From Rhina ancylostomus (lineage: Eukaryota), in the NCBI GenBank assembly GCA_030265395.1, contig JARFYF010000063.1, forward strand, positions 64,105,654 through 64,169,653: a stretch of 64,000 nucleotides of DNA, written 5' to 3'. Shown here one piece after another: positions 4,701 to 64,000 of this stretch. The notes beneath the pieces are model-generated. The model made no database searches. It was not told where the DNA came from and saw only the letters and a list, made by a program, of their open reading frames with translations. Made by a program: the position numbers and the translations under genes. Position 1 is the stretch's first letter. Every line of letters begins with the position of its first letter.

Positions 4701-7700
4701 AGAGATCATGTGTGCTTAATAAAAGAAATGTGCATGTCGATTTTGATTAATATCAGCCATTGTGTCATCCTGGCATGTAAGGGCATTTGACTGTGCCCAA
4801 AATCCACTGCTATTCTGATGTCAATTACGTCTCCCCAGCCCCACAATATCTTCCTTTACCAATTCTTTGTGATGCATCACTTCACCTGTTTTTTTTCATT
4901 GTCTAATTATCTCCTACATTGGCTTCTCCCATGCTTCTGGGTCTAGTGATCCTGGTCTTCCACTTTGAGCTTTTGCCTATTTCCCTTCCTTTGCTCATTA
5001 GCAGCAAAAGAACATTTACTAATGTCTAATGGCAATGCCCAACTTTACCTTTCCAATGGCAGTTCTAAATTTACAACTGAGTCTTCGACATCAAGATCTT
5101 CCTGCACCAAAGTATTGGCAGAAGAAAGGGCATTAAAAATTATCTGAACAATATGGTGGTGAAGGTCAAGACATATAACAACTTCCGCAGGCCATTTTTT
5201 GCACAGCAGATATAACTGATGTTCTGACCTTGCCATCTTGTGTTCCATAGCAGAGCTTCCTATGACAATGTAGAGTCATTCAGCACATATCAAACTCCTA
5301 CATGTCTAACTTAATTCAATCATGAGCTGCAAAACAGGAAGTCTCTTTTAATTACCATGACTCCCAGTTTGCCATAGCATTATGGCCACCTTGCCTTCTC
5401 ACTAATCCTTCTACTAATTACTAGAGGTCTATGGTTTTTGACCTTTCTGTTAAGAAAATGGGACCTTCCTTGATAATCTGCTGGCTACTCATAATTTTAT
5501 ACATTTCATGTAACATTCCCTTTAGCTCCCTTAGTTCTAAGAAAGCAATCCTATTGTATCTGGTCTTTCCTCTTGGTACAAGTTTCCAGCCTTGGCTACG
5601 TATCCACAAATCTCCACTGTATCAACACAAAAAGTGCTGGAGGAGCTCAGTGGGTCAGGCAGTTTAGATGCTGCTTTGCCCACTGAGTTCCTCCTGTACT
5701 TTCTGTGTTGCTCCAGATTCCAGCATCTGCAATCTGTGGTCTCTCCAATCTCCACTGCATCCTTAATGAAAAACATGATGATGCTGGAGAAACTCAGCAG
5801 GCCAGGCAGCATCCATGGAGAAAAGCAGGCGATCAATGTTTCAGGTCAGGACCCTTCTTCAGGACTGAAGATAGGAAAAGGGGAAGCCCAGCAGATAGGA
5901 TGGAAAAACAGAGCAGTGATAGGTGGACAAAGGAGGGGAGACAGGGTGGTGATGTGTAGTTGCAGGTAAGAGATAGTGATAGGCAAGTGCAGGAGAGATG
6001 GGGAGAGCAGATCCACTGGGGGATGGGTGAAAGGTAAGAAGAGAGAAAAAGAAGGCTAGGAAATGGAAGAAGAGAAAAAGCATGGTTTTGTTGGGGGGTG
6101 GTAAGTTTGTGGGAAAGTGGGGTGGGGATTACCTAAAGTGCGGGAATTTAATATTCATGCCGCTAGGCTGCAAGGTTCCAAGATGGAAAATGAGGTGCTG
6201 TTCCTCAAGTTTGAGCTTGGAATTCTCCTGGCAGTGGAGGAGACCGAGGACTATCATATCAGTGATAGTGTTGGGGAGGGGAGAGGATGGTGGTGGGCTG
6301 GAGAGTTGAAGTGACTGGCAGGAAGATGCAGGTCACGGTTTCGGACAGAGTGCAGGTGTTCTGTGAAATGGTCACCTAGACTGCGTTTGGTCTAACCAAT
6401 GTAGTGGAGGCCACACTTGGAGCTCCGAATGCAGTAGATGATATTAAGGGAGGTGCAAGTGAATCTCTGTCTCACCTGAAAGGACTGTTTGTGTCCCTGG
6501 ATAGGNNNNNNNNNNNNNNNNNNNNNNNNNNNNNNNNNNNNNNNNNNNNNNNNNNNNNNNNNNNNNNNNNNNNNNNNNNNNNNNNNNNNNNNNNNNNNNN
6601 NNNNNACCAATGTAGTGGAGGCCACACTTGGAGCTCCGACTGCAGTAGAGGATATTAAGGGAGGTGCAAGTGAATCTCTGTCTCACCTGAAAGGACTGGT
6701 TGTGTCCCTGGATAGGGGTGATGGAGGTGGTGTAGGGGCAGGTGTTGCACCTATGTCAGGGGCAGTGGAAAGTTCCTGGGGTGGGAGTGGGGGGGGGGTG
6801 AGGAGTGAATGAGGGAGTTGTAGAAAGAGCAATTCCTGCAAAAGGCAGAAAGGAGAAGACATGCTTGGTGGTGGGGTCCTGTTGGAGATGACGGAAGTTG
6901 CGGAGAGTGATATGTTGGATACATAGGCTGGTGGGATGAAATGTGAGGATAGTTTCTCCACTGCATCCTTTCTTGCTCAATCACATCTTTCCTGTCCAGA
7001 ACTCTATGGGATCTAACTACAGATGTATGCAGTTCTGGATTAACCTCTTTTCCTGTACTCTATGCCTCAGCTAATAAAGGAATTCCTGTGAGATGTCTTT
7101 TAACCATCTTATTGATATACCTTGCAACCTTGGAGGCTCTATGAACAAACGTTGCCTAAGGTCCATTTATTCCTTCACACCTCTTGGCATATTCCCAGAT
7201 ATTATGTTATTTCTGAATGCTTTCTCATACTTGGTTGAGTTGGATTCCATTTGGCATTTTTTGCTTAACTTGTTGGTTCATTGATATCTTACTGCAATCT
7301 AAAGATTTCCTCCTTGCTATCAACCACAAATTTATCCATCCTTCATTTATATTTAAATCATTAATATGTATAATATGTACCACAAACAGCAAGAGACCTA
7401 CTATTAGGCCTTGTGATATGTTTTCCAGTCACAAATATACCTGTTGAGCATTACTTTGTGTCACTGAGCCAATTTTGGATGCAATTTGTCACTCTCCCTT
7501 CGATCCACAGGCTTCTACTTTCAGACTAGTCAGCTGTGGAGGTCCTTATTAAAAACCTGGCTGAAACCTGCATAGACTAGATTAAATGCATTGCCCACTT
7601 TAACCTTCTGTTCTGCCTCAAAAAAATCAATCAAGTTTGGCGGACGCAACCTTCCCCTAAACCCCTGCTGCATCTCCTTGATTTTATCTCTTCCTTCTAA

Positions 7701-10700: not shown

Positions 10701-13700
10701 AACAAAAGGAGTCTAAAGTTGTGGGAAAGGGCTATAGAAGCTTGGGCCATCTTCATTAGTGCATTGCATGCAAGGGATCTAATAGTTGCTCAAAGCTATA
10801 AGGGGTTTTGATAACATCAGTTGGGGAGAATTATTTTCACTGGTTGACTTGAGCAAATTTAGCTTGAATTAAATGTAATCAGCTACGGAGCAAAGGGTGA
10901 GGAATGAAGAATAGATTTTCTTGTTGCAGATTTCCCTATCTGTAACAATGGCAGAAGCAGTATCTCTAAACACATTTAGAAAAAGAATTGGATAACTATT
11001 TGGAAATAGATATTATTAGATAGTATATGGAGAAGTTGGGGAATGGACTTATGGGAGTTTCCTTCAGAGTTTGAATTGGCATGTTTTCTTTGAAATTCTG
11101 TAGTGCTGTTACCAGAAGTTTCATATTTATGCAAGGTCTGTCTGAACATTGGGACTGAAGTAATACTTTACACAGGCAGATTATTGCTTCTGCAAATTTT
11201 GCTCTTTTCATCAAGTATTTGTTGGATGGAGGAAATGACTTGTTTTGTTACTTTATTTCGGGCTTTTCTGAATATCCCAAAGTGCTTTCCAACAATAAAT
11301 ATAATTAGTGGTCAAATGCTATTGTACTTTCTTGTTAAGGATCATTGGTCCTCAAAAGTGATTTATGTATTTTCTGCACAATGTAAAAAGTATAATGAAA
11401 GATCAATAATGTTAATCTGTTTCATGTTACCAGGGAATTAGATGGCACTGTCCCACCATGTCTGACTGCTGGCCAGCTGGAAGCTCAGCGCCTCCTTTCC
11501 AATTTGACCTCAAATGAAGCCCAAGGGAAGGAGAGTGAAACTCGCCACATGATATACGAGCGAGACAACCAGAGTTACCATGGTTTGGATAATGATAGCA
11601 CACGATCAACTGCAGTGGATGATACTGTGGTGAAATTTCTCAATGACCAATTAGCACTTGATGCCCTGCACAACTCTGCACTTTACAAAACTTTGAGCCG
11701 AGATACACTGGGACAGAAAGGTGATGGCATCAAAGGCTTCCATACTAAGGTAGTGAGCATTGACGTGGATGCAAAGAGTGAACGACCATCTGAGCAGTCT
11801 CAGCTGTCCTCCCCGAGTTCCACATCTGAGTCGGTGATGCAGAAACTAGAGATTATGCGCAGGAAGCAACATGATGATAAACTTGAAAAACTGAAAGAGC
11901 GGATTAGGAAGCAACGGGAACATTCAGAGGAGCCTGTTGAGAGGGACCGGCAGCTAAACTTCCATGAGTTACCTATTGCACTTGGTGTAGGTACTGCAGT
12001 TCCAACCACCAAAGTGAGGAAGGTTGCTGTAGCACCACCTGCTCCATCATATAAAGGTATGACTGACGTTCCTACGCTGTTTTTAAATTCCTTTCAGTTT
12101 CCCTTTCCCTTTTCTGATTCATGGTTGTGGTAGGATACAAGCAAACCTTGTGCATGCAAGTGAAGGAGGCAGCTTTGGCTTCCAGGATCCTGCTGATGTA
12201 TACTTGCTAAGTAATTATTGTTATAATGTGAGAACTGTGACAGACAAATTGTGCACAGTGATTTCTCTCAAACAGCAGTATGATTTTGAATGGGTAACGT
12301 AGAGTTTTTTGAAGGATGAATATTGTCTAGGTTACAAGAGAGGACCCTCCTGCTCTTAGAGTGATGGAATATTTTGCACCACTTGAGTGAGCAGCAGATA
12401 TTCTCTCATTTTAAAAGATGGTGCCTTCATCAAGTTTGCCTTAGTACTTCAGTGGAACATCAGCTGAATAATGGCAGCCCAGTGCAGTATATGTAACACT
12501 CCAGCAACCTATGTTCAGTCTTGACCTGAGTACTGTGTGTACGATGTTTTTTGTGTTCTCCCTGAGACTGAGAGTTTTCCCCTTGGTGCTACAGTTTTCT
12601 CCCACATACCATAGGTGTGTTAGTATGTTAATTGAGCACTGTAACTTGTCCCTAGTGTAGGTGGGTAGCTGAAAAATATGGGTGAATTTTTTTTTAATTA
12701 CTTAGTGTGGTAACAGGCCCTTCCGGCCCAACGAGTCCATGCCACCCATTTTAAACCCCAAATTATCCTACCCGTATGTCTTTGGTATGTGGGAGGAAAC
12801 CGGAGCACCTGGAGGAAACCTACGCAGACACGGGAGAACGCACAAACTCCTTACAGGCAGCAGCAGGAATTGAACCTGGGTCGCTGGTGCTGTAATAGTG
12901 TTCTGCTAACCATTACGCTACCGTGCTGCCCTTAATTGATGAGAGAATAGGTTGCAGAGAGAACTCTGGGTATATTTTGAAAACTAGCATGGACCAGATA
13001 GGCCAAATGGCCGCCACCCATGTCATAAGTAAATATGTGAAATCTCTGGAGTGGGACTGGAACCTGCTCATCACGAACTGAGGTGAGATTGTCAGCCACT
13101 GAGCCACAGCTGTCAGCAGTAAATTGTGTAACAACCTCTCAGTACAATTATAGAGATTAAATCCCTGCCATGCATTGGCAATGATGTGTATCAACTTGCA
13201 TTCTACAATCATAGTGTAATATTTGTCAAATTGGAGTATGAATGTGACTTTATACCTGTACCATTTTCATTTTTTGTGCCATTTAATTTAGGGTGACTGT
13301 AAAAAAAAAAGTAATGAGGCATAGTCACACTGAGCAACAGTAGTTTGAAATCTGATGTTTAAAACTTTAGCTTCAGAAGAACACAGACTTTCAATAAGAA
13401 AAATTGGAAAGGAAAACAAGTGTTCATTGATATGAAAGCAAATTGATGTTTATCCCAGCATCTGAGGGGCCACTTTTTGTAAACCTGACAAATGTGCAAC
13501 TGACTTTCTCTGTGACAGGTTGACTTGCCTGGGCCGTTCCAGTGTATTAGTTCTGGTCTAAATGTGATGTCCATACTTTATTGCCAGCAAAAGGAAAAGA
13601 TCAAAGTATCAAACTTTAAAATCAGTATAATAATGTAATTTTAATACTGGCTGAGTAAACCAGAGCCCTACACTGAACAGCAGATACGAGTTCTGATTCC

Positions 13701-16700
13701 GTGATGTTCGTGAGGAATATAATGCATAGAAAGCTTCTTTCATCAGTTTTCATTTATTTTAGTAGAACTGTTTGGTTATTAGGTTATTAACCTGTAACCT
13801 TAACTCGGTCTTCTCTCTTCACAACTACCATCTGAACTATTGCTAGCATTTCATATTTCCATTGACTAATGTGTTCTGGATCTCCCAGTTCAAGCAAGCG
13901 TTGTTTTTCTTTTGAAAAACAAATAAAACTGCAGAAGCTGGAATCTGAAACAAAAACAGAAAATGCTAGAAGAACTCAGCCATTCAAGCAGTATCTACGG
14001 AAAGAGAAATCGGTTAACATTTGGATAAGGGACCCTTCATCAGAAATGTGAACTGGTTTCACTTTCTACAGATGCTGCTTGACCAGCTGATTTCAGCATT
14101 TTCAGGAGAAAGATAATGTCCTGTATTCAGTGTATTCTAACCTTTACTTTCATTACAGGTTTCAATCCCACAGAGACAAAAATTCGGACTCCTGATGGCA
14201 AGGTGTGGTGTGAAGATGAAATGCACAATATTAGCAAGGATATGTACCGTGACTTCACACTCCAGTTGGCAGGTAAGAAACCTTCTCTGATTCGGGTTAT
14301 TGCAATATGAGGGGACTGTTCTTCCTCTTGATTATGTCTCACCATTTTTAAGATCCTGGTGTTATCCCAATTTTAAGTTCCCACTCCTGCCTGCTGCAAA
14401 ATCACACAGTGTCACAGATTAATTCTGTTAAAATGTGTTTATTAGCAGTGTGCTACCAGGGAGAATTCTCCTCTGAATCTTGTGCAGAGTCTTTATTGGA
14501 GGTATCCACAATACANNNNNNNNNNNNNNNNNNNNNNNNNNNNNNNNNNNNNNNNNNNNNNNNNNNNNNNNNNNNNNNNNNNNNNNNNNNNNNNNNNNNN
14601 NNNNNNNNNNNNNNNCGTTGATGTACAGGTTTAAGTCTGCTGACTGGAAGGCCTTATCCGAAAGGTCTGGATGGGGTGTAGTCAAAAAGTGGTTTTGCAT
14701 TAAACAGTCATCTGGTGGATCTTCAAGATCCTCAGATGGGGCTTCTAGAAATGTGGCAGGGTTCATAGTGGTGCAGTATGCAAAAGTGAGGAGTGGTTAT
14801 TCAGAAGCGCTACCTCATATCTGTTTAAGCGGGCTTGGATAAGGTGTTACGTCTGATGGGAGGTCAAGAGTGCTGTTACCGTGTGGGAGAAATAAACAAC
14901 TACTGACTGTTGCAGGGTTATATTGGAGGCTGCTGTTACCAGGGAGTAGATCGCTGGAAGCATCTGTGAGCATGGCGGAAGTCCCCTAGCAACTGGGTCC
15001 AGCCAAGTAGAGTAATATGCCACTGGTCTTTTTCTATCCCCATGTGTTTGAGTAAGGACGGCTGTAGCGCAGTCCTCCAGGACATTCACAAAAAGCTGAA
15101 ATGGGTGATCATATAGAGGGCATCCCAGGGCCGGGGAGCTGGCAAGGGCCTGTTTGAGCTTATCAAAGGCCTCCTTTTGTTCCTCTAAGTTCACAAGGTC
15201 CCACAGACTGGCTTGAAGCCAGGGGTGTGAGGTGCTTAGTAAGGAGGGCCACATTAGGTAGCCATTGCCTGCAGAAATTTACAATATCAAAGAAGGTGCA
15301 CATGCCCTTCGGTGGAGAGGGTGGTAGGGTAGCAATAATGTGTGTAATACATTCAGGAGTGAGCTGCTGCTCAGTTGCACTTAAAAGGGTGCCTAGAAAT
15401 TTCACCTGGCACTGCGTTTGCCATACTTTCTGTCCCCAAGAATGGAGTAAGTTAAGTAAAATCCTCTGGGTTGGTTTTACGGTTGGGCGCCTGAATAATG
15501 GTTAGGCAATTCTCCTGAGGCTTCCAAGGGGTGTATATTTGGATCGTAGGAATAGTGCTTGCTTGGGCTGGATCAGGATTGGGAGCACTCCTATTGGGGA
15601 ACTGTCTTTTAGCCTTGGCTCCCTTTACCTCATTCAACATAGGTGATAGGTTAGGATCTTTAGGGTCATTATTATCAATGGTAGAATCAGAGTCATAATT
15701 GGTGTCTGACTGAGGATCTACTAAAGGTCTGTCCCCTACCAAAATGTTGCATCGCTTGTCTGTGGCCTTAGAACCATTCATATGCAGGCTTCCTCTCTGT
15801 CTAAGCTGATTTCTAGTTTGGGATGCAATAGGGCCATGGAATTGTCCTTGGGACGGCACTTGGCTAGCAGTCATTGGTGGTGAGAGCAGAACAGTTTGCA
15901 GACTAGTTACATTATATGGGGGTGGCAGTGAAATTGGGGGGTAAATAGGGGCTGTGTGTCGGACCATCCAATCCTCCTCATTTTCATCCGTATCATTACT
16001 TTGGAACAACAGGGGCATGCCAGACATGTTAGGAGGTACCTCCACTTTATCCTTATTTCTCTATTTCTATTCCTACATTTTTCCTTCTTTTCCTGGTCTA
16101 CCCTTTCCCTCTCCCTTCTTTGTGCATTATGTTCCCAACTACTCTGTTTAGATCTATTTGTCAGGTCTTCGGCCATTTTTCTCCAAGTAGACATTAATAT
16201 TTTCCAGTTTTCTCCTGTATTGTTTTCCCAAATTGCCTTTTCTGCCTTTAGACACTTACCCACATCCCAAGTTCCTCCTAATGGCCATATTTCATTTCCC
16301 AATTTCTTATTGAGGCATACTGATAATTTACGGAAGTTATTCTCATTATTCAACCATAAGGTACAAATCGCTACAATTATCTATAATATCAGTCTCTTTC
16401 CTTCACCCACTTCAGGTTCCTGACCTTCCCGTGGGGGATTTCCCCTCTTGAACCGGTCTAAGGCAGGGTGGTAGTACTGGAGAACCGATCTGAAACCTTA
16501 AAACTCAAAACCTTGAAAATCACAACCTTAACACCCAAAACTGGGGACTCAAGCCCCTTACCGTTATTACTCCGAGGACTCGAACCTCAAATAATTTATC
16601 TGGAGGACTGTAACCTCCTTTTACCTGTGGCACTCAGACAGGTTCGCAAGGAGTCCATCAGAGGATATTCGATAAGCGAAAGAATCAATCAGGTGTCCGA

Positions 16701-19700
16701 CTCCCTAAGAGGGATCAAGGTGAATCTTACCTTGTGGGCCCTTCCATATCAGGTAGTCGTTAACCCCGTCGATCGCTCACGCCGCTTCGGAGACCTTGTC
16801 TTGGACTCCTGGCTGGCTCGCTAAATTGTTATCCCAATTTTAAGTTCCCACTCCTGCCTGCTGCAAAATCACACAGTGCCACAGATTAATTCTGTTAAAA
16901 CACAATATGCTGGCAGGGAGAATTCTCCTCTGACTCTCATGAAGAGTCTTTATCGGAGGTCTCCACAATACAGGGGGGCAGACATTAATTTATACAGTCC
17001 ATGTCACACATTTAAACAATATGACTACATAGATTTCAATTGGGGAGCCTAAGATACAGACACAACCATCACACTTATTGTTTAGGACAAAACCTCACTT
17101 ATTGTTTTGTATAATTGGCTTACAATCAAGTTCCAGGCATAGTAATCACCAACTGGTTCACGTGGTCTTGAGTCAGGGGCTTGCACGTGGTATTTTTTCA
17201 TTAGTTATATGTACGGTCACAATTTCTTAACCCTTTACTTCCTCACTGGTTCTGCATCTCTGTCTCATTTGCTTCTGTTGACTCTATATTCCTTGATATC
17301 TGTACCCAAGGTAAACCAAATTGATTAACTGCAGCACACACAATCTTGTAGATAGTTCTAGATTTTCATCTTCCTCTGCCAAAAAATGCTTATTGATGCT
17401 AAGTAACCTACCTCTACTTTTAAAATGAACTGTGGTGGAAGACGTGTTCTAATGATTGGTGTGATGTGCTGGACATGAATCTGTTAAATTTTTCAGCCAT
17501 CGTGGCTTTTGAATGAAATGACTAGTTTCGAAGTAATTTCAGAATTTTTCAATTCTGAATCTCTGTCTTCCATCATTCCTTTGCTCATCTAAACTATATT
17601 AGCTCCTGATTTAAGCATTGCTTTGTTTTTAAAATTCTCAGACTGGTCAGACTAGTTTTCTAGTCCCTCAGTGGCTTTGTTTCTCTACCCCCCCCCCTCC
17701 CCCAAACCTTCTTTGAAATCTCCAGTTCAAAGATTCAGTTAGCTACACTTCAATTCTGGACTGATTTTAACTCATTCACCATTGATGAGCAAGTATTCAA
17801 TGGACGAAGCTCTAAATTCTGGAATTTTCTCCCAAAATCTATGTAGCTTTCTTTCTCTAAATAATCGGCTCTAATGTGGTTCAGTATAGTGCCTTGTAAA
17901 TTTCATTACATTAAAAGCACTTTATAAATATAATGAATATATGGGTTTTAGTCTTTCTTGCCAAATGGAGGATGTTAAAAATAGTCTAAAATGAATGCTG
18001 TGGTTTCAGTATAAGCAGAGTTGGAGTTCAGCATTAATAAAGAAGAGCAGAGATCTGTACAGGGTGTTCAAGTAGATTGATTAAATCTCAACAGTGCTGC
18101 TGGCATGGGTTGGCTTTTTTTGGTTTTGGCTTTAGATGCTTTAGGTGATCAGAAACATAACAAGGAGAGATTGTTTACATGTTACATCTGTTCACCAGTA
18201 TTGGTAGGCATGTCTGACAGCTTACAGCAAGTTGTATTTAAATAGCACCCTTGACATTAAAAGTCCCTAAGGTGCATTGCAATCACAGCTGAGGGGAAAA
18301 GCTTCTCTCTACCCTATCTATGGCCCTTATAATTTTGTGTACTGTACCTCTAATTGGTATTAAAACAGGTTGGTCACTGTGGAAGATTTTAAGGAGTATC
18401 TGAGAAAAGTGACAGTGGGGAGATAAATTTGGGGAGCTAATTGCAGAGCTTGGGGGCAACTAGCTGAAGGCATAGTTCATAATGGCAAAATAATGCAGAC
18501 TTGCAAAAACCCATAATTGAAAGAGACAAACTTCTGAGTTTGTGACTCAAGGACGTTAGAGACTGGGACAGTCAAGACCACAGATTTGAAGACCTGACTA
18601 AAGGCATTTAAAAGTTAATGTTGGTGAAGGTGAATGTGATGTGATGCAGCTTGGAAAGGCAGTATGTGAGCAGCAGTTTTCATGGAGAATGACGTGAAAG
18701 GTTAGATGGGAGAGCAAAAGTAAACTCATGATATCCTATTTGTGAATTAGCCTCCTGTCATGGTTCTGAGTTCTGGCCCTCATTTGGCTCCACTAGTGTC
18801 TTGTTGTCCAGCACATGGATTCCATGCTGGACTGATTGCATAACAATACACACCTGAGCCCCATCAGGGGNNNNNNNNNNNNNNNNNNNNNNNNNNNNNN
18901 NNNNNNNNNNNNNNNNNNNNNNNNNNNNNNNNNNNNNNNNNNNNNNNNNNNNNNNNNNNNNNNNNNNNNNNNNNNNNNNNNNNNNNNNNNNNNNNNNNNN
19001 NNNNNNNNNNNNNNNNNNNNNNNNNNNNNNNNNNNNNNNNNNNNNNNNNNNNNNNNNNNNNNNNNNNNNNNNNNNNNNNNNNNNNNNNNNNNNNNNNNNN
19101 NNNNNNNNNNNNNNNNNNNNNNNNNNNNNNNNNNNNNNNNNNNNNNNNNNNNNNNNNNNNNNNCAGATTTTAACCACCTGGATGAGAAAGCAGTTTTTTT
19201 CAATTCCCCTTATTTTAAATCAATATGCTTAAGGCTTAGACACTTCTTTGCTAAGGGAAAAGTTTCTCACTGTCTACCCTTTCAGTGCCCATAATTTTGT
19301 ATACCTCAATCAGGTCCCCTCTCAGCCTTTTGGCCTTTTGAAGAAGAACAGTCTCTGCCTATTCAGTGCCTCTTCATAGCTGAAATGCTCTTTTCCAGGC
19401 AATATCCTGATGAACTTCTGCACAGTCTCCAGTGCAATCACATTGTTCTGTAAAGTGGCAGCCAGAACTACACACAATACTCTGTGACCTAACTAATATT
19501 TAATGTGTTATATCATAACCTCCTTGCTCTTGTATTCTGTGCCCTGGCTACTGCGTGGCTTTCTTAATCACTTTATCTACCTAGGCTGCTGCTTCAGGGA
19601 TCCTTGGGCAGGTGTACCAAATCCCCCTCTCCCTCAGTGCTTCAGAGGGGACTACCATTTATTGTGTTTATCCAAGCCATAATGATCTTCCTAAGCGACA

Positions 19701-22700: not shown

Positions 22701-25700
22701 CGTGCAACCTCTTAGAGCTGAGATATGGGCTTAGGGCTGCACCCCAGCTGCTTGCACAAGTTGGGCACTACTTGTGTTGACAAACTGCATCCCTCTCTCT
22801 TTGACTGCTTAGCTCTCTCATCCTGGAGATTTCTCTGTGATGACTTGCCTGATGGTGGATAACATTCTATGCTGTCAGCATGCTGCCCTAGGCCCCACAT
22901 GTCTGTGATAAGCAGTCTCATGGCTTGTCCAAGCTCACTGAACAGCCCCTGCTGGCAATGTCTACATTGCTCCAATGGTTTGCATCATACCTAGATGTAT
23001 TGCGGTGAGATCACTGCTTCATTTCTGTGGGAATGCTGGTGGAGGGTAGGGGTTTGCATCAGGTTCCTGGCACAGCAATGCACAGATTGAGCAAATTTTG
23101 TTTTGGTGAATGTTCAAACTCAGATCAATGACACTATATCAGCACTCTATGGGGTACCACCAAATGGGTGCCAGAATAGTTGCTCAGAAAAGCACTGCAG
23201 ATACTGCTTCCATTAAGCATTGCCCCCAGAAGAAAAGTCTGTACATCAGATGAGCAAAAGGACAGAACATGATCCTTGCAATACTGACTTTTCCTTTTAA
23301 AGGAACTATTCCACCTTTCTGCTTCCTTGAAAGTAGTTCCCTGACACACATTTTGGACATTAGTTCTTCATTAATTGGTTTGGATAGTTAAATCTTTTTT
23401 TATCAGAAAGAAAACAACAAAATGTTGTTATAAAGTTGCATTCACAATATTGCTTCCTAATCCTGAATAGTGTATTCCCGTTTCTAATATAGGGTATATT
23501 TCCATCATGAAACTTAGAATTGGGGCTCTTGTTATGGCTTTGTGTGGTATTTTGAAAAATCTTTAATTAGTTTACAAGCTTTTAGCTTGTGGCATCAGTA
23601 CTTGTGCACACATACTGCTCCTCTTGTACATCAGCCCACAAATTGGAACCCACTCCTATAATTATGTAACAGAAAATAGCTTAATATTCCTTAACTGAAA
23701 ATTGTAGACCCATATTTTTGGGGCTTGTTTCTCTTGCCTTGATGGAATGTGGTACTATGTGGGCAGAGTGGGAAAATGAATAATCTGTGACGTATCAGGG
23801 TTCCTTCGGAGATTCATTAAAACTTCTGTTCTAGAGTCATGGAGTTGTACAGCAAAGAAACGTGCTCTTGAGCCCCCTGTGTCTCTGCCAACCATTCTAG
23901 ATATCTATACTAATCCCACGCCTTGATTAATTCCATGTCCCTCTCTGCCATGCTTATTCAAGTACCTGTCCAGATACATCTGAAATGCTGTTGCTATTCA
24001 TGCCTCCACCATCACCTCTGGCAGCTCATTCCAGATATTAACTACTATGTGTATTGGGGGAAAAAGTTACCCCTCAGATCCCCTATAAACCTCTTACCTT
24101 AAACCTATGTCCCCTATCATGGGAAATGGACACTGACCATTAACTTTGTCTCCCATAATTCTATATACCAATATCATTGTCTCCTCTCAGGGAAAACAGA
24201 TCCAGCCTGTCCAGTCATTTTATAACTCAAGCCATCTACATAACGCTTCAGAAAACTTTCCTGAACACAAATTATGCCCCATCTAATCCCTTTGCACCAA
24301 AGCACCCAATTGAAGAACTAATCTACTGGTCCAAGCAATTTTTATTTTTCTGTTTGGGTGCTGAAGCTAAACTATTAACTTTAAAATTACTTGCGTATTT
24401 GGCTTTAAATCGTAATTTGGCCTTGCATCCTATTAAGTACATAAAATCCTTTTGGTAATTTTTGTTTTAAATTGAAGACTTTGCCATTGTTTTCTTGGTT
24501 ATTCCCTCTCTTTGATGTTTTATCTTTGCAATCAGCTCTCATTTCACTCCAGCTAATTCCAGATCCTCAACTGTGTTTTTTTTTTCCCCCACTTTTCCTT
24601 GCTGCCTTGTGTCTATTTTTGAAGGAGAGAGCAATTTTAATTTACAGACACTTTTAAATTTTCTGAATTCATTCATAGATTGGGATGCTACTGGCAAGGC
24701 AGCATTTACTATCTATCCATAGTCATTCTGAACTGAAGAGATGTATAATGGTAAAATGCATTGCTGTAGGTCTGGACTTTTATGCCAGGCTGGGTAAGGA
24801 CAACGGATTTCCTTCCCTGAAGACCATTAGTGAACTAAATTGGCTTGTGCCACAATCTGTTGGTTTATTGATGATTTAAGAAATACTACCATTGTATTCC
24901 AGAATTATGTTTAAATATTTGTATTTAAATTCCCTGCTGCCATGGTGGAATTTAAACATATGGCTCTTGATCAATGGTCTAGGCATGTAGATGCTGTTTC
25001 ATTAATATAGTAAGAGTAAGGCTGTAGCATAGCCTTAAAGTTCATTGCAGTTGTTTAGACAGCTTTAGGTTGGCAAACAAATAATTCATAAAAGTGTCAA
25101 CAAATGCAGTATGTTTCTCTTAGAAGAGGAGACAAAAGCCAAGAGATATGGATTTAAAGTAATAGAAGGATTTGTGGATGGGGAAGAGATAAGATGCCTA
25201 CTGTGCCACAAATCATAGGATCCATGATCTGTGGATCGGGTGAAGAAGAAAGATTGCAGATGCTGGAAGTGTGGAGCAAGATACAAAATGCTGGAGGAAC
25301 TCAGTGGGTCAGGCAGCATTGAAGGAGGGAAATGGACAGTTGACGTTTTGGGTCAAGACTTTTCATTGGGACTGGCAAGACAGAGGGGCGGTGGCCAGTA
25401 TAAAAGGGGGTGAGGGGTGGCGCAAGAGNNNNNNNNNNNNNNNNNNNNNNNNNNNNNNNNNNNNNNNNNNNNNNNNNNNNNNNNNNNNNNNNNNNNNNNN
25501 NNNNNNNNNNNNNNNNNNNNNNNNNNNNNNNNNNNNNNNNNNNNNNNNNNNNNNNNNNNNNNNNNNNNNNNNNNNNNNNNNNNNNNNNNNNNNNNNNNNN
25601 NNNNNNNNNNNNNNNNNNNNNNNNNNNNNNNNNNNNNNNNNNNNNNNNNNNNNNNNNNNNNNNNNNNNNNNNNNNNNNNGGGGACAGTGGGATCAGGGTA

Positions 25701-28700
25701 AACGAAAATGGGGGGACAGAGGTGAGTGACCCCTCCAGCAACTACTTCCCTCCATAGATGCTGCACAACCTGCTGAGTTCCTCCAGCATTTCGAGTGTTG
25801 CTCTGTGCATAGGATGTTGGAATAAAATAAAATCCTAGAAAGGTTAAAAGCTTTTTCTTGCCAAGTTGGATTTTTGTATAACCTACTGTCTGGATTGTGT
25901 TTATCAAAACTTAGCCTAGATTGTGCCAGAAGCGGGAAGATCTGATGCATTTGCTGTGTTAAGTATTTCATTTAAGGTCAGCAGAATTCATGCCAGTAAT
26001 TTTAAAACATACCATCCATGTTTTGCAATATTTCATAATGGCTGTGATTTACAGAAATAACTAATTATTTGGGTCCTGCATCTTTGCTAGTCTTCTAGCA
26101 CAAAGACATTGGATTGTTAACTTGGAATATGAAAAATGCCATAACTTGTGGATTTGACAGCTGTGTGTGATTAGTGAAGGAAGCAATTTTGGTGGGTGGA
26201 GTGGTGGGGGAACACAGTTCAGAGTGGGTATCTGGCTTCCTGGAGTTGAGCTGGTAGTAGTTACTTCTCTATTGTTTGCAACAGAGCTGTTCAGGACTTG
26301 GAGGGATGTTGTCTATAATTTCATGCTAAGTAAGCAATCAGGAGGTGAAAGTCTCTTAAGATGTTCAGCAAACATGTATGTATTTAGAGAAATACTTTAA
26401 GACTATTTTTTATGGATTATATGCCAGATCCCTTAAGCAGCTGTACTAAGCCAATACATTTCACTGGGTTATTTTAAACTCTAGTTCATTATGTATTTCT
26501 GCTTCCTCACGCAGTTTTCATCTGTTTTAAGGGACTAGCTAAAAATATTTTCCAGTTTCCAACTGGTACTAACCAAAGTGTAAAACAATCTATATTCTCA
26601 CTGTTTGCTGTTTAGTCATTTGTTCTTACATATGGACTTGGTGAAGAGATAATTCATGTTCCCCTTGATTGAACAGCTAGTTCACTGTGGTTAACAGAAC
26701 ACAGTGTGCATGCAGAACACTGTACCAGTTGAATTCATTGAGACAAAGATTCACCTCCTCCAATCTCGTCTACTACATTCAATGCTCTCGACGTGGATCC
26801 CAAGGAAACGAGCGAAAAGATGACACTCCTATTATCACTGGTCTATTGTATTAGTATGTTTAATGATGCTATCTCAGCTGCTCTTGATTGCAAGATGCTG
26901 TGAAAGAGTCAATTCTAATAAAATTGTGATTTGTAGTTAATGCTTGTTTGCTGATTCTACACTAGCTAATTTGTAGCTAATGGAAAGTAATTTGCTACAT
27001 GTAGTACCAACAAAAGTGAACTCTTGCTTTACTTTCCATTGTTGACAGAGAGTAGTAAAGTGAAAGAAGCTGCATGGGAAAAAGCCAGAGAGAAGAAAGC
27101 CACTAAACCTGTGCGTAAGGTACAGAAAATAACTCGATCACCGAGCCCTGACACCAAACCAAGTGAGTCAACCAAATTTTCTTTTTTTAGGCACTACAGT
27201 TTTTTTTGCCAGAGTATGTATCAGGCTAAAGTATAAATTTGTAATTTTTGCCATAAATTTCATGTGGAAGCAAAATGGAATAGTTTAAATAGCACTGCAA
27301 AATTCAACTACACAGATGTGCAAATCGTTTCAGAAACACAGATAAATCCAAATTCCTAATCCTTTTAGATTTCTTTAACTGAATCTTGTGTTGGCATGAA
27401 AACTGCTTTAACTCCATTTAATTTTGCCTGGTCACTGTAAAGCAGCTCTGATTCCACTGAGTGAACTCGAATAAAGCAGAAACCTGTTATCTTTAAAATC
27501 TTAATGGCTGAAAGACAATTATAATCAGAGATAGTGGTAGGGGTGTCTGGGAAATGCTCACATGACATTTATAGCTCTCAAACACTGACTGTTAAGCAGC
27601 TGAAGTTTTTGATTACTTTCCAATATTTATTACTGTCTATGGAAGCTTGCAATCTCTAACACCTCTCTGACTGAAATAACAAAAATGTTATCTAACAGAA
27701 TTTCCTTAAGATCTAAGTCAATTCTGGCTGATGTCTGTAAGGAGTTTATACGTTCTCCCTGTGTCTGTGTGGGTTTCCTCCAGGTTCTGCAGTTTCCTCC
27801 ACACATTCCAAAGACGTACGGGTTAGGAAGTTGTGGACATGCTATGTTGGCGCCGGAAGTGTGGCGACACTTGCATGCTGCCCCCAGAACACTCTACGCA
27901 AAAAGATGCATTTCACTGTGTTTTGATGTACATGTGACTAAAAGATATGTTACCTTAATCTTTGATAATTTACAAGTTGCTATGCTGTTTGAAATTTGAC
28001 TATAATATCAGACAATTGAATTTATTTACTATTTTCATATCATACGAGTCTCAAATTTCTGCTGGAAAGTGCTAAGCAGATTCACATTTGACTTCCATAC
28101 CGTCATGATTTATATGAAATGATATAATAAAGCACATTAACATGAGATATAATGAAGCCTACGTTAGTCTCGCATAGTAATTAAGTTCCTCTAAAAATTA
28201 CAATAGTTGCAACAATGTCCCCGGTTATCCTTATCTTTCTAGTAAAATCTCAAAACCAGGCATAAGGATATATTCTTTCGTCTCTAGGGTATACTACCTC
28301 TAAGATTTTTTTAAAAAAGGATACAATGAGTCCAAAACTCATTGTGTTTGTACAGCTGAGACAATTTATTATCTTAATTTCCTCCAAACCTAAACTTTGG
28401 CACTCTGGAATTCTAGTTCCAAGTCGCATTGGAACAATAGTCTCTAATTTTACTTATTACATGTTATAATTAAGATGAGAATTCAACTTGCTTACCTGCA
28501 TGGTTCACTGATATTCCAGTCGTGCAACAGGTAATATAGANNNNNNNNNNNNNNNNNNNNNNNNNNNNNNNNNNNNNNNNNNNNNNNNNNNNNNNNNNNN
28601 NNNNNNNNNNNNNNNNNNNNNNNNNNNNNNNNNNNNNNNNAGATTAATGAAATTAAAGGTTTGTGTACAGACAGACACATCAATGTACATCTAGCATATG

Positions 28701-31700
28701 CATGAAGATGATTGTGATGTTTCATTCTTTTTGCATTGGTGATCCTGGCAAGTAGTCTTTTGCAGACACCACTAACATTTGCCCCACTGAACTTGTGTCC
28801 TCGTATCTTGACTCCATTTTGTCCCCCCTTGGCTCAGTCCCTTCCTGCCTCTGTTCGTGACACTTCGCATGCTCTCCATCACTTCAACAACTTCCAGTTC
28901 CCTGGTCCTGACTGCCTTATTTTCACCATGGGCGTTGTGTCTCTATACACTTCCATCCCTATCAGGAAGGCCTTGAGGCTCTCTGTTTCTTTCTCAATAA
29001 CGGACCCAACCAGTTCCCCTCCATCACCACCCTCCTCCATCAAACCACAAAGCAGAAGACCAGAGTACCATTTTAAAAATGGTGATGGATTCTGAAATAT
29101 TAATGTTCAAGGACATCCAGGTCCCCTTGAACACATTATTGAAAGCCAGCATGCAGGTGCAGCATGAGATTGGGGACTTTTACTGTGAGAGGATTTGTAT
29201 GCAGGAGTAAAGGGGTCTTACTAGAATTACATAGGGCTTTGGTGGGATTACACCTGGCGTATGGTGGACAATTTTGATTTCTTTATCTCAGAAAGGATTT
29301 ACTTGCCATACAGAGAATGCATCAAAAATTCCAAAACATTAAGGCTATCATGTATATCACCTGCTGGCCTACACATTATGTAATTCTTTTCAAACTAAGG
29401 CTGGCTAAAGGTGGGGTGCAGCTCTTTCTGTGATCTGCCCTAGTCCTTGTGTATATTCTTTTCTCATCACGCTGGCTTTCTTAAAGTAAGCACTCTTGAG
29501 CAAACCTCCATGGAATTAAGTCTGCCAGCTAAATATAGCAAAAGCCTGCAGCAGTGAGCCAAACTTGTCCCATGTCATGCCTTTGTAAAGAAATTAGGGG
29601 AGGAGATTTGCTGCAGTGCATTCCACTGTTTATGGATGGCTTACCACTTGCTATAAATAGCCTCCAATCTGAAAGAAAGTGTGCAGCAGGGTGGGCTTTT
29701 AATGGCTTCTTGCTATTACATCAATCTCTGGAGATGATTTTCTCAAGTAATTCATTGGCAATAATAGGGACTGCTATCAAAGTGTCTGAATTCACATTCT
29801 TTTATGCACATATGGGAAGTGGGTATTGATGGCAAGATCACCACTTATTGCTTTTGGTGGTGAGCTTCCTGTTGAACCACCTGTAATTCATCTGGTGATT
29901 GATACCTCTGCAGTGGTCACAGACAGGGACTTCAGTATTTTTCAGTCCATCAAAATTGAGGGAACAGCAGTGTTTTTCTAAGTCAACAAGGCTTGCAACT
30001 TGGAGAGAGATCCACAGGTGGTAGTGTTCCAGTGTTAGCTTTTCCACTTTTTGGACAGGATTGCATATTTGGGATGTGCTATTGGAGTAGTTGGGTCCTG
30101 GAGTGAATAGTAAACTAATCAAGTGGGCTGCTTTGCCCTACATGGTGTCAAGGTACTTTGATGTCGTTGGAGCTACAGTAGTCCAGCAAATGGGGCATAT
30201 TACATCACATTTTTGTGTTCTGGATGATGGAAAGACTTAGTGGTGTCAGAGAATGAGTCACTTGCATAAAAGCTACAATCTCTGATCTGCTTTTGCTGTC
30301 ACATTATTTAATGTAACTTATCCAGTTGAGTTTTTTTTTCCATGTCCTTACTTATTCTTGAATATTACTTGCCACAGCAACTGATGTCTGAGTATTGTCC
30401 AGTCTTGCTTCATGCAACCATGGACCATTTCATTCTCTGAAATGAATGGAATTTGACACTGTGCGTTTGTCAAAGAATATCTGCAGTTCTGCTTTAATGA
30501 TAGAAGGAAGGTTATTGTGGAAGCACCTGGCAGTGGTTGGCCCTTGGATTCTGCCCTGAGGAGCTCTTACAACAATGTTTGTGCTGTGATGATTGACCTA
30601 CAATCACCATAAGTGTCTTTCTTTCTATGACTCCAATCACTGGAGTGTTTCCTCTTGATGCCCATTGACTTCAGTTTTACCAGGATTTAATGTGACACTC
30701 AGTTAAATGTTGCCATGATATCAATGGCATTCTCATTCAACCCTCGAATTCATACCCTTAGTCCATGTTTTGGCCAAGGCTGTAACAAACATAGAACACA
30801 GTAGAGTACAGCCCACAATGTCTGTGACGGCCATGATGCCAATCTAACTAATCCATCTGCCTGCACGTGGTCTATATCTCTCCATCCAATGCCTGTTCAC
30901 TTGTCTGTCTAAATGTCTCTTAAACATTGCCATCACATCTGTTTCTACAACCTCCCCGGCAGCGCATTCCAGGCACCTACCACTGTCTGCATTTTTTTAT
31001 ATAAACTTGCCTCACACAGCTCCTTTAAACTTCTCCCCTCTCTCCTTAAACCTATGCCCTCTATTATTTGACAGTTCCACCCTGGAGAAAAAGACTGGCT
31101 ATCTACCTGGCTATATGTGCTTCTCATTTTATATACTTTTATCAGGTCATCCCTCTGACACTTCAGAGAAAACAATCCGCGTTTGTCAACCTTTTGTAGC
31201 TAATACATCCAATCCAGGCAACATCCTGGTGAACCTCTCAAAGGTTCAACATTCTTCCTGTGGTGTGACAACCAGGAATGTGTACAAATCTCCAAATGTG
31301 GCTCAAACAAAGTTTTAAACAGGTGCAACATCTCAACTGCTATACTTAACACCCCAACTGCCTCCTTTACCACCCTATCCACTTGTGTTGCCACTTTCAT
31401 GGAAATATGGACTTGCATCCAAAGATCCTTCTGTATATTGTTGCTTATAAGGGTCCTGCCATTTATTGCATATCTTGCTCTTGCATTTGACCTTCCAAAA
31501 TGCATCACTTCACACTTGTCTGGTGTGAAGCTGAGTGGTCCTGGTAAAACCCAAACTGGGCTTCGGTGAGGAACTTATTGGAGAGTAAATTCTACTTGAT
31601 AATACTTCAATGATGTCTTCCGTTACTTTGAATGAGATTTCGACTGGGCAGTGATTGGCAATTTTGAATTTGTCCCATCTTAGTGTATATGGTGTATCTT

Positions 31701-46700: not shown

Positions 46701-49700
46701 CAAAAATTGGTGAGTGTCAAAGAGAACATGCCAAATTTCTTTAACCTCCTGAGGACGTGGAGGCCCTGGTGAGCTTTCTTGGCTGTGGCATCTACATGGT
46801 TGGACCAGGACAGGCTATTGGTGATGTTCACTTCTAGGAACTTGAAGCTGTCAACCCTCTCGACTTCAGCACCGTTGATATTAACAGGAGCATATGCACT
46901 GTCCCCCTTCTAAAGTCAATGACCAGCTCTTTCTTTTTGTTGATATTGAAGGAAAGGTTGTTGTCATGACACCATGTTACTAAGCTCTNNNNNNNNNNNN
47001 NNNNNNNNNNNNNNNNNNNNNNNNNNNNNNNNNNNNNNNNNNNNNNNNNNNNNNNNNNNNNNNNATTGTTATTTGAGATACAGCCCACTACAGTGGTATC
47101 ATCTGCAAACTTGTAGATGGAATTAGAGCAGAATCTGGCCATGTGTGTATAGGGAATAGAGTAGGGGGCTGAGGACACAGTCTTGTGGGGCATCAGTGTT
47201 GAGAATAATCATGCTGGAGACATGACCAGTCTGCAGAATATTAGTTGAAATTAATAACTTAAATATTTTATATATAAATGGTAAAATGTTTTGAGGTGTT
47301 CATAGTCATTATCTGGCAATATTTTGCACAGTTTTTGAGGACGAATGTAAAAGGGAGTGTGCTGAAGTGGCAAAGTGGTTTTGGGAGGGAATTCAGATAA
47401 ATTTTGACAAGTGTTATTCAGCAGTGTTTGGAAAAGTAGGTGATCTGGAAAGAATTTGTGAAAGTTAGTGTTAACAGAAATGACTTTGGCATATTCCCGA
47501 GTCAGCATGTCAGCAATGGAGATATAATGAATTATTGCAGATTTTTGCAGGTGATTATTAAAGTTTCTGTGCAATTTACCAATTTTCTGACAGCCAGTGT
47601 TCCAAATTCCAGAATTGCCAAATTTCCAGAAATACCAGTGGTGAGAGATGAGTATGGTGGTAATGTGAGGAGCAGATGAAGAAAACTCAAAGTATAGAAG
47701 GAAGTTGTGGGAAGTAAACATGTTACCTTTCCCAAACCCCAACCCAAGAAGGATTTCTTGCTTTCTATTGTATATATTCTACTGGAAATATTGGCAGTCT
47801 TTTTTTTCCTATGGAGGGCCAGAGCTCAATCCTGATTTTATCCCACCTGCTAATGTAAATGATTAAATCCCAACTGTTATCTTACCCAAACTTGAGATTT
47901 TGCTGTGGGATATGTCCGGTCATCAGTCTTTGTATATTACCTACATTGTTAGATAATGTCCCAGAATGGTTTCTTGGAAACCGTTGCTGTTTGACCATAT
48001 GTAACACCTTTAAGATGGATCTACATCTGTATTGCCTGGCAAGAGTTCAGAGAAATGCCTGGTTTTAGTTTTGGATTTGTTTATTTTGTGTACTGGTGAT
48101 GATAAAGTAGTTTTTAAAAAAAACTTTTCAGAAATTTTAGTATCCATTTTTCTGGTGCCTGTTGTCATCTTTGAAGAATTTTCAGTAGGAAACATGGCTT
48201 GTAAATTGATATTGATAAAGAAGGGATTCCACATAAGGATATGCAAGAGCTTCTGAATCTTACATTTACTGAATAGACCTATGAGTATAATGGAAACTGC
48301 CCTACTCACATATAAATTCAGTTTATGATGAAACTGCAGATGTGTTCACTTTTTTAAACATACTCTTTTTGATTTCACGCAGAAGGATTCAATATCTTCC
48401 TATCCTCAAATTGGGAAAGTGAAACTAAAATCTGGGCTTGTGCAACCACTGCACAACTAATATTGTTGGAAGTATATATTTGGAATTATAACCAGATTAT
48501 ATAAACACCAAAAATGGCAGGTCTGTGATGGAAGAGTTTTTGCGATGTTACCAGATAGCTGGTATGCAACAGCATTCTTTGGCCTCCAAATATTGAAACC
48601 CAAGTGCAGTGGGCTCCCTCATTCTAGTATTCAACATGGATTTCCATGTATTCAGTGAAATGCTTGTCCTATTCATAATCGGGCAAAGGGACCTGCATTC
48701 TTCCAATTCTCGCTTCTTGTTGGTCATTATTTAACACCATTGATAGCCTTTCTTTCAGCTGCCTAGGCCACAAATTTTGGAATAATGTTACTAAATGTTT
48801 GATAAGGTACCCCATGCAAGGCTTATTGAGAAAATAAGGAGGCATAAGCTCCAAGGGGACATTTCTTTGTGCACCCAGAACTGGCTGGCCCACAGAAGGC
48901 AAAAAGTGGTTGTTTACAGGTCATATTCTGCATGTAGGTAGTGACCAGTGGTGTGCCTCAGGGATCTATTCTGGGACCCTTGCTCTGTGATTTATATAAA
49001 TGACCTGGATGAGGAAGTCAAGGAATGGGTTAGTAAGTTCGCTGATGACACAAAGGTTGGAGGTGTTGTGGATAGTGTGGAGGGCAGTCAGAGGTTATAG
49101 CGGGACATAGGATGCAAAACTGGGCTGAGAAGTGGCAGATGGCGTTCAACCCAGATAGATGTGAAGTGGTTCATTTTGGGAGGTCAAATATGATGGCAGA
49201 ATATAGTATTAAGGGGTAAGACCCTTGGCAGTGTGGAGGATCAGAGGGATCTTGGGGTCTGAGTCTATAGGACACTCAAAGCAGCTGCACAGGTTGGCTC
49301 AATGGTTAAGAAGGCAAACGGTGTATTGTCCATTAATCGTGGAATTGAATTTAGGATCCGAGAGGTAATGTTGCAGCTATGTAGGACCCTGGTCAAACCC
49401 CATTTGGAGTACTGTGCTCAGTTCTGGTCGCCTCACTACAGGAAGGATGTGGAAACCATAGAAAGGGTGCAGGGGAGACTTACAAGGATGTTGGGGATTG
49501 GGGAGCATGCCTTATGAAAGCAGGTTGAGGGAACTCGGCCTTTTCTCCTTGTAGCGACAGAAGATGAGGGGTGACCTGATAAAGGTATATAAGATGATGA
49601 GAGGCATTGCTTGTCTGGATAGTCAGAGGCTTTTCCCCAGAGCTGAAATGGTTGCCACAAGAGGACACAGATTTAAGGTGCTGGGGAGTAGGTACAGAGG

Positions 49701-63681: not shown

Positions 63682-64000
63682 AGATTTCTTTATTAGTCAT
63701 ATGTACATCGAAACAGTGTTTTGCATCTTTTGCATAGTGTTCTGGGGGCAGCCCCCAAGTGTCACCACGCTTCCAGCGCCAACACAGCATGCCCACAACT
63801 TCCTAACACGTACGTCTTTTTGGAATGTGGGAGGAAACCAGAGCACCCGGAGGAAACCCATGCAGACATGGGGAGANNNNNNNNNNNNNNNNNNNNNNNN
63901 NNNNNNNNNNNNNNNNNNNNNNNNNNNNNNNNNNNNNNNNNNNNNNNNNNNNNNNNNNNNNNNNNNNNNNNNNNNNGAATGTGGGAGGAAACCAGAGCAC
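63682..64000 (-). mobile_element. HE1/V-SINE-like SINE (same subfamily as 27718-27948), broken by a gap
   Basis: GAATGTGGGAGGAAACCAGAGCACCCGGAGGAAACCC core; the tail is the reverse complement of 27840-27945. Confidence 0.8.

Follow-up and report, generated by a model that had tools for sequence, protein, structure and literature searches.

A 64,000-nucleotide stretch of Rhina ancylostomus contig JARFYF010000063.1 (positions 64,105,654 to 64,169,653, here called the window) carries exons of the gene CEP350 and, in one of its introns, an endogenous retrovirus (ERV). We found that the element is a class I ERV on the minus strand, running from 17245 to 14360, with TG at 17245 and CA at 14360. It starts 83 nt into the intron and is antisense to the gene. 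It is very probably a defective class I provirus from a clade of skate and shark ERVs, with the walleye epsilonretroviruses as the clade's likely sister group. Integration likely took place after the host had split from a relative in which the site is empty. We compared the window with reads and contigs of four out of 24 listed sequencing runs: X1 (organism A), X2 (organism B), X19 (organism C, raw reads), and X21 (RNA, organism B).

We identified the host gene from a large exon at 55153-56202, which matched 19 proteins at an E value of ≤1e-20 among 5232 candidates; 11 were labelled CEP350 or CE350 in the names shown. The CEP350 exons are collinear across the window, and the exon after 14159-14272 lies near 27040. 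The exon matches and the splice context agree on the CEP350 intron that a first-pass annotation, made from the sequence alone, had proposed. The same annotation suggested a cartilaginous-fish host, and here the support is indirect. In a 13-row exon tree, the window exon paired with the EukProt protein P0006 (100/100), apart from the 11 named rows (7 tetrapod and 4 teleost). The nearest named relatives of the ERV, too, are all from skates and sharks.

The features of the locus are as follows (LTR, long terminal repeat; RT, reverse transcriptase; P0025 and P0175, ERV proteins of the skate Leucoraja erinacea).

14159-14272, plus strand: CEP350 coding exon of 114 nt, with a GT donor at 14273 in an AG/GT context; 53-69% identity in tblastn of CEP350 proteins.
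14356-14359, plus strand: left target-site duplication, CTGG, 83 nt past the splice donor; an X1 contig (14053-14388) spans the junction with 0 differences.
14360-14515, minus strand: visible end of the 3' LTR, 156 nt, ending in CA; U5 and part of R, by position.
14516-14615, no strand: assembly gap of exactly 100 N, hiding the rest of RNase H, integrase, any env, the polypurine tract, and the U3 of the 3' LTR.
14617-14796, minus strand: pol, linker into the start of RNase H, with NPATFL and PDL.D; 47% identity to P0025 residues 703-760; frame break near 14800.
14847-15278, minus strand: pol, RT connection or tether, with RPVAYYS and LDPVARG.PPC; Pfam RT_RNaseH_2, E = 6e-16; PDB, E = 2e-22; 60-64% identity to skate and catshark ERV Pol.
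15205-15462, minus strand: pol, from just past the YXDD motif through the RT thumb; aligns with P0025 residues 477-567; PDB, E = 1e-5.
15455-15465, minus strand: internal deletion junction; the alignment to P0175 skips ahead at 15459-15462, from about residue 277 to 1004, about 725 codons and so about 2 kb or more.
15452-16060, minus strand: gag, p12-like region with the late-domain motif PPPY, QFPNR, and the capsid start YTPWKP; aligns with residues 99-274 of the skate Gag-Pol P0175, E = 2e-8.
15907-16380, minus strand: gag, matrix-like frame with WPLGGTW; no in-frame start codon, and a frame break near 16060.
16806-16823, minus strand: primer binding site for tRNA-Arg(ACG), 17 of 18 bases (19 of 20 when extended), after a 3-nt ATT spacer.
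16827-17245, minus strand: 5' LTR of 419 nt, TG...CA, with TATAAA at 16994; family reads end at 17245.
17246-17249, plus strand: right target-site duplication, CTGG; an X1 contig (17220-17700) spans the junction with 0 differences.

The element has the parts of a retroviral provirus: paired TG...CA LTRs (the 3' LTR partly visible and partly discordant), a target-site duplication together with an empty site, an 18-nt primer site, and an RT tether with RNase H. The two LTR copies, the TG..CA ends, and the CTGG duplication called by the first-pass annotation are all in place. The chance of a 4-bp flank match alone is about 0.005, and the end at 17245 was fixed independently, as 193 X19 reads and 35 X1 contigs depart there into unrelated flanks (agreement, 0.41 to 0.45). 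A 4-bp duplication, here CTGG on both sides, is what is listed for group I ERVs (PMC11905727, in its Table 1). On the element strand, AATAAA occurs twice in the visible 3' LTR (14443 and 14497), one site falling inside a 10-nt indel, and is absent from the 5' LTR.

We found the empty site in organism B. One X2 contig joins 14358 to 17247, skipping the whole element, at a depth of 47.5, which is the single-copy depth of that run. X2 contigs lie on both flanks, with a second one extending the right flank. In these flanks, organism B differs from the window at 13/331 and 23/314 positions, with 5 gaps in the 314 nt of the right flank. The check proposed with the first-pass annotation was an empty AGATC-CTGG-TTCTG site in a related species; the site is indeed empty in organism B, but it is 3 bp longer than predicted. 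The simplest reading of the excess is one small indel. We concluded that insertion likely followed the split of the host from a close relative having the empty site.

The family to which this copy belongs is large. X19 depth over 18 internal bins ranged from 167 to 525 (median, 327), versus 0 to 0.6 on the unique flanks. Organism C thus has about 340 to 765 copies, for assumed genomes of 2 to 4.5 Gb. The RNA run X21 gave 466 reads on both strands, at a depth of up to about 30; it comes from organism B, which lacks this insertion, and has no bearing on this copy.

The gag motifs (WPLGGTW, PPPY, QFPNR, and YTPW) and pol motifs that the first-pass annotation quoted are all present in minus-strand frames. 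We take WPLGGTW to be a class I matrix motif; the matrix-like frame as a whole had no significant match in Pfam, PDB, or Atlas. The internal deletion joins the capsid start to the RT thumb, with loss of most of the capsid, the nucleocapsid, the protease, and the RT fingers and palm. At 15459, 218 X19 reads and 35 X2 contigs depart from the window sequence. We also found a frame break in the 15190-15270 area of pol and an in-frame stop at 14847-14849, and the decayed leader has no upstream open reading frame (ORF). With these lesions, the copy cannot encode working Gag or RT, and so it is likely inert.

Two side observations concern this part of the element. At 16351, 248 X19 reads depart from the window, with several joints nearby (16351-16450), so this copy also differs from others by a rearrangement or deletion at the start of gag. 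In the skate relative P0025, an insert at residues 125-265 separates protease from RT; it has two motifs of the Hx(T/S) type and resembles a 2H phosphoesterase. Atlas points to PF08302 at 0.81, which is a lead only, and similar inserts occur in several fish ERV proteins. The deletion in the window copy covers the place where such an insert would lie. Domains of the 2H-phosphoesterase type have been reported in fish epsilon-like ERVs (PMC4977317 and PMC9503650, in part).

We next turn to Pol, which the first-pass annotation had assigned to a class I ERV rather than to Ty3/Gypsy. The tether frame matched Pfam RT_RNaseH_2 (E = 6e-16), and 4 of its 6 PDB matches were retroviral RTs at E values of 2e-22 to 4e-22, versus 0.24 and 0.5 for two Ty3 chains (for one of the two PDB chains, the Ty3 label is our assumption). 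These searches place Pol with Retroviridae and not with Ty3/Gypsy, and the class I assignment stands. Of 996 candidates in a first homologue search, 5 distant proteins were returned, and the skate and shark relatives were not among them; a single pol frame used as query of viral_contigs gave 0 related sequences among 4 candidates. An alignment query of IMG/VR yielded 26 natural retroviral genomes from 58 candidates. Among 1079 protein representatives at E ≤0.001, two reached 1e-30, P0025 and P0026. P0025 is an ERV Pol of Leucoraja erinacea; its nearest named relatives, from Leucoraja, Amblyraja, two Scyliorhinus species, and Heptranchias, are at 60-100% identity, and the other listed matches are at ≤47%. 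The 111-residue window frame shares 60-64% identity with the skate and catshark proteins, as against ≤52% with the other named ones.

We built trees of 62 rows (a quick tree, with P0188 left out), 41 rows, 26 of those 41 rows (a careful tree), and 18 rows. The window frame grouped with the skate and shark proteins in all four, with support of 99, 98, 100/98, and 100, respectively. These proteins are P0025 and P0175 from Leucoraja erinacea, P0036 from Amblyraja radiata, P0176 from Scyliorhinus torazame, P0177 from S. canicula, and P0230 from Heptranchias perlo; they also share with the window a homologous capsid start. A further shark protein, P0183 (Pristiophorus), fell elsewhere in the tree. 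In the 41-row tree, a class I clade of 37 rows that includes the window had support of 100, apart from the spuma and snakehead types. The relatives bear the class I domain MLVIN_C.

The skate and shark clade was sister to the group of the viral locus L003 in the three trees that included it (97 with 41 rows, 91/81 with 26, and 83 with 18). L003 has ORFs of 120, 582, 1143, 1225, 297, and 306 residues, with a Cyclin_N domain on the 297-residue ORF, after env. From its length, ORF layout, and cyclin ORF, we take L003 to be walleye dermal sarcoma virus, and L001 and L008 to be its relatives (genus Epsilonretrovirus, including the epidermal hyperplasia viruses). The RNase H linker likewise prefers this group, its best exogenous matches being L008, L001, and L003 (E = 1e-10 to 2e-9). 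An approximately unbiased (AU) test on the 18-row tree rejected the grouping of the window with gammaretroviruses (P = 0.031). Pol is thus nearer to the walleye viruses and to fish and amphibian ERVs than to gammaretroviruses, as in the epsilon-like clade Mu, with moderate direct support for the sister relationship. In the 26-row tree, L001, L003, and L008 form a clade (100/100) to which the window is sister, and the window thus falls outside the genus Epsilonretrovirus in the strict sense. Strict members have accessory ORFs (an upstream ORF and a retroviral cyclin) and a His-type primer. L003 differs from the window in its primer-site sequence, which is presumably His-type, in an ORF upstream of gag, and in cyclin-type accessory ORFs; the window has no upstream ORF, and its 3' region is hidden. 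We concluded, from sequence comparison, that the skate and shark clade is likely sister to the walleye-type epsilonretroviruses.

The first-pass annotation had also called an Arg(ACG) primer site, and it agrees at 17 of 18 bases with the complement of the published tRNA (sequence from PMC7757669, in part). Among the 26 retroviral loci, the Arg(ACG) site occurred in one, L016, and the window site had at least 4 mismatches to the other 25; the 18-base pattern had 0 matching stretches in viral_contigs. From its length of 10,688 nt, we take L016 to be snakehead retrovirus. The Arg primer that the annotation had linked to a snakehead-type virus is therefore shared at the sequence level, but not as kinship: the window Pol is 23% identical to that of L016, versus 38-49% to gamma and epsilon references. 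Since the site is found in L016 alone and Pol is at 23%, the primer match reflects use of the same tRNA and not ancestry. A GGTAAG splice-donor-like site lies at 16726-16740 on the minus strand, about 70 nt past the primer site, in the place expected of a retroviral major splice donor.

The skate and catshark proteins are 36-40% divergent from the window in the conserved region, which makes the window element a different family. Their frames are long and open, whereas the window copy is deleted and frameshifted. Two published sets of cartilaginous-fish ERVs are comparable. For the complete copies of the elephant shark set, CmiERV, we take the primer sites to be Ser- and Leu-type. Han (2015) described CmiERV lineages I to III, of which II and III are epsilon-like; two complete copies share with the window the same ATT spacer between LTR and primer site, neither has the Arg(ACG) site, and by eye their tether does not carry the signature of the skate-catshark clade (PMC4422223, in part). 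Xu et al. (2018) screened little skate, whale shark, and elephant shark, and their supplement file 7 contains a little-skate ERV consensus, le_er_ERV2 (PMC6001957, in part). Compared by eye, it has an RT of the P0025 type and a VKFLG..SATE stretch in common with the window thumb. The record is RT only, ending at the thumb, without LTR, primer site, or gag, and it is not among the labels readable in the text of the S2 figure of that paper. The overlap of le_er_ERV2 with the window is thus the thumb, by eye, and the 60% identity to the named skate proteins argues for the same clade and a different family.

We found no paper that names an Arg-primed elasmobranch ERV family in a search of the published literature that left Repbase, Dfam, and subscription journals outside its scope. 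The first-pass suggestion of an unnamed lineage therefore holds in part. For the wider clade there are already RefSeq gene models and, judged by eye, the deposited skate RT consensus le_er_ERV2, but the family itself, about 36-40% divergent in the tether, looks unnamed. The window family is probably an unnamed one within the known epsilon-like class I kind of ERV.

The assembly gap limits what can be read from the 3' end. A run of 100 N is the usual placeholder for a gap of undefined size, and here it interrupts the element at the start of RNase H and leaves 156 nt of the 3' LTR visible. X2 contigs (n = 18) extend beyond 14624 into sequence that is not in the window. The two LTR copies are identical at 73/74 positions in the first (U5) segment, and the next segment, beside the gap, is identical at 60/73 positions with the 10-nt indel (Fisher P = 0.0005). 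A provirus integrates with two identical LTRs (PMC4422223, in part), so the second segment points to an assembly chimera or to later conversion, and the pair cannot date the insertion. The ages that U5 (1/74) would give, 13.5 Myr (0.3 to 73) at a rate of 0.5e-9 substitutions per site each year and 31 Myr (0.8 to 166) at 2.2e-10, were both rejected as unreliable, as the rest of the LTR pair is discordant (rates from PMC10699275 and PMC4422223, in part). The window has 14 runs of N, five of them exactly 100 N; the assembly is fragmented, and contig ends next to repeats call for caution.

Several points weigh against the reading of a skate-shark provirus, close to the walleye viruses, that inserted after the split. 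At the locus, the LTR pair is inconsistent beside the gap, no contig ties the interior to the flanks (the X1 records stop at 14388 and 17220), and integrase and any env would fall within the hidden region. Both X1 junction contigs are identical to the window, but X1 holds 0.30 of the sampled words and is perhaps the window's own sample, and thus not independent. The empty site comes from one species and exceeds a single CTGG by 3 bp. In the trees, 111 window residues enter (18-22% of the columns), the walleye link is unstarred in the careful tree (91/81) and has support of 83 in the 18-row tree, and the tether is, by raw identity, slightly closer to gamma references (43-49%) than to L001, L003, and L008 (38-42%). 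The AU test did not reject the window with L016 (P = 0.36), on a long branch with 111 columns and low power.

These points lead to other explanations. A class I ERV with no special closeness to the walleye epsilonretroviruses, either a separate deep class I branch or gamma-like, would fit the tether identities and the weak backbone support (71/86 at the root of the 26-row tree), and WPLGGTW and PPPY resemble gamma Gag. The AU rejection of the gamma grouping and the closer linker matches to L008, L001, and L003 speak against it, and we consider it unlikely. In addition, clade Jin (gamma) is reported only from amniotes in the part of PMC6001957 used here. A snakehead-like element (clade Huo) or a Ty3/Gypsy retrotransposon is far less credible still. 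The primer site does match L016 at 17 of 18 bases, with at least 4 mismatches elsewhere, and the AU test of that grouping was not significant. The tether, however, is 23% identical to L016 (E = 0.013), versus E values of 1e-21 to 1e-25 for class I references; L016, which belongs to clade Huo and not class I, stands separate in the 41-row tree. The Ty3 chains reached 0.24 to 0.5, and MLVIN_C in the relatives is a class I domain.

Other explanations concern the history of this copy. Organism B may have had the element and lost it, keeping 7 of the 8 duplicated bases (CTG-A-TGG), which would make the insertion older than the split of A and B. At the organism B junction, the left repeat's first 3 bases and the right repeat's last 3 are indeed still present. 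Yet excision is not part of the retroviral cycle, one 3-bp indel at the TG-A-TG microrepeat suffices where the right flank already shows its gaps between A and B, and the U5 pair differs at 1/74 bases; we regard such a loss as very unlikely. Insertion after the split remains our preferred reading, and it leaves two questions about the copy itself. One is whether it belongs to a non-autonomous subfamily that had lost the stretch from capsid to RT palm beforehand and that intact helpers copied in trans. The LTRs and primer site are retained here, and X1 family contigs are 10-14% different from this copy (6 of the 8 listed records), above the A-B flank difference (13/331 and 23/314); this copy therefore probably differed from the others by the time it inserted. 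Non-autonomous ERVs are known in fish genomes (PMC8672886, in part). The 218 X19 reads and 35 X2 contigs that depart at 15459, however, indicate many copies without the junction, in a count that covers departing reads only; we think such a subfamily somewhat unlikely. The other is whether the part of the 3' LTR seen at about 14434-14515 is chimeric, from a contig end run into another family copy or from gene conversion. This is quite possible, if a little short of an even chance, and compatible with our preferred reading. The switch in identity occurs despite the LTRs being identical at integration, the discordant stretch adjoins the gap while unique X1 anchoring ends at 14388, and X19 reads are sparse over 14475-14482 (7 to 9 per strand versus about 135 for the 5' LTR type). 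Against this, the conserved LTR block is 74 nt, within the span of single reads, and mixed-type LTRs occur among family reads (the joint 14470 to 16930, in 8 X19 reads), so LTR variants are natural in the family.

Following general retroviral biology, we propose that an RNA genome would have been reverse-transcribed from a host tRNA-Arg(ACG) primer, and that integrase would have inserted the product with a 4-bp staggered cut in a germ-line cell after the A/B split, with decay thereafter. The internal deletion may have arisen either before insertion, with mobilisation in trans, or after it. Because of the antisense orientation, the CEP350 transcript likely does not carry the LTR poly(A) signal, so that the copy would be tolerated.

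The rest of the 64-kb window contains other repeats; no tRNA genes or Rfam families were found in it. A dispersed SINE-like (short interspersed nuclear element) repeat occurs in both orientations (4-150, 12781-12926, 27718-27893, and 63736-63876) and resembles, as we take it, the V-SINE-type elements of ray genomes. A second abundant short repeat family, often in inverted pairs, lies at 2709, 5618-5828, 13947-14090, 25272-25816, 36331, and 52204; the depth over its copy at 14056-14090 is high in each of the four runs. Decayed retroelement-like fragments lie at 6395-6716, 31200-31574, 46834-47208, and 52468-53007, and are presumably of Penelope, CR1/L2, RTE/Rex, and L1 type. A 111-nt repeat lies on either side of a 100-N gap, at 6395 and 6606, probably because two overlapping contigs were left unmerged.

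In kind, the finding is unsurprising. Epsilon-like shark ERVs were described in 2015, and 2018 clade I RT loci have been counted in 6 chondrichthyan genomes (Blanco-Melo 2024, PMC11089739, in its Table 2). The value of this copy is as a marker of a high-copy ERV family in a thinly studied vertebrate group, and as a presence/absence character between close species. It also ties scattered skate and shark gene models into one clade, possibly the sister of the walleye epsilonretroviruses, which bears on where epsilonretroviruses came from. We tentatively suggest that sharks and rays may have a deep lineage of retroviruses to themselves, which would be the nearest known sister group of the true epsilonretroviruses, with one Arg(ACG)-primed branch that has hundreds of copies and was still inserting after closely related species had separated. 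If true, this would mean a long residence of these viruses in elasmobranchs and possibly an exogenous relative that still circulates.

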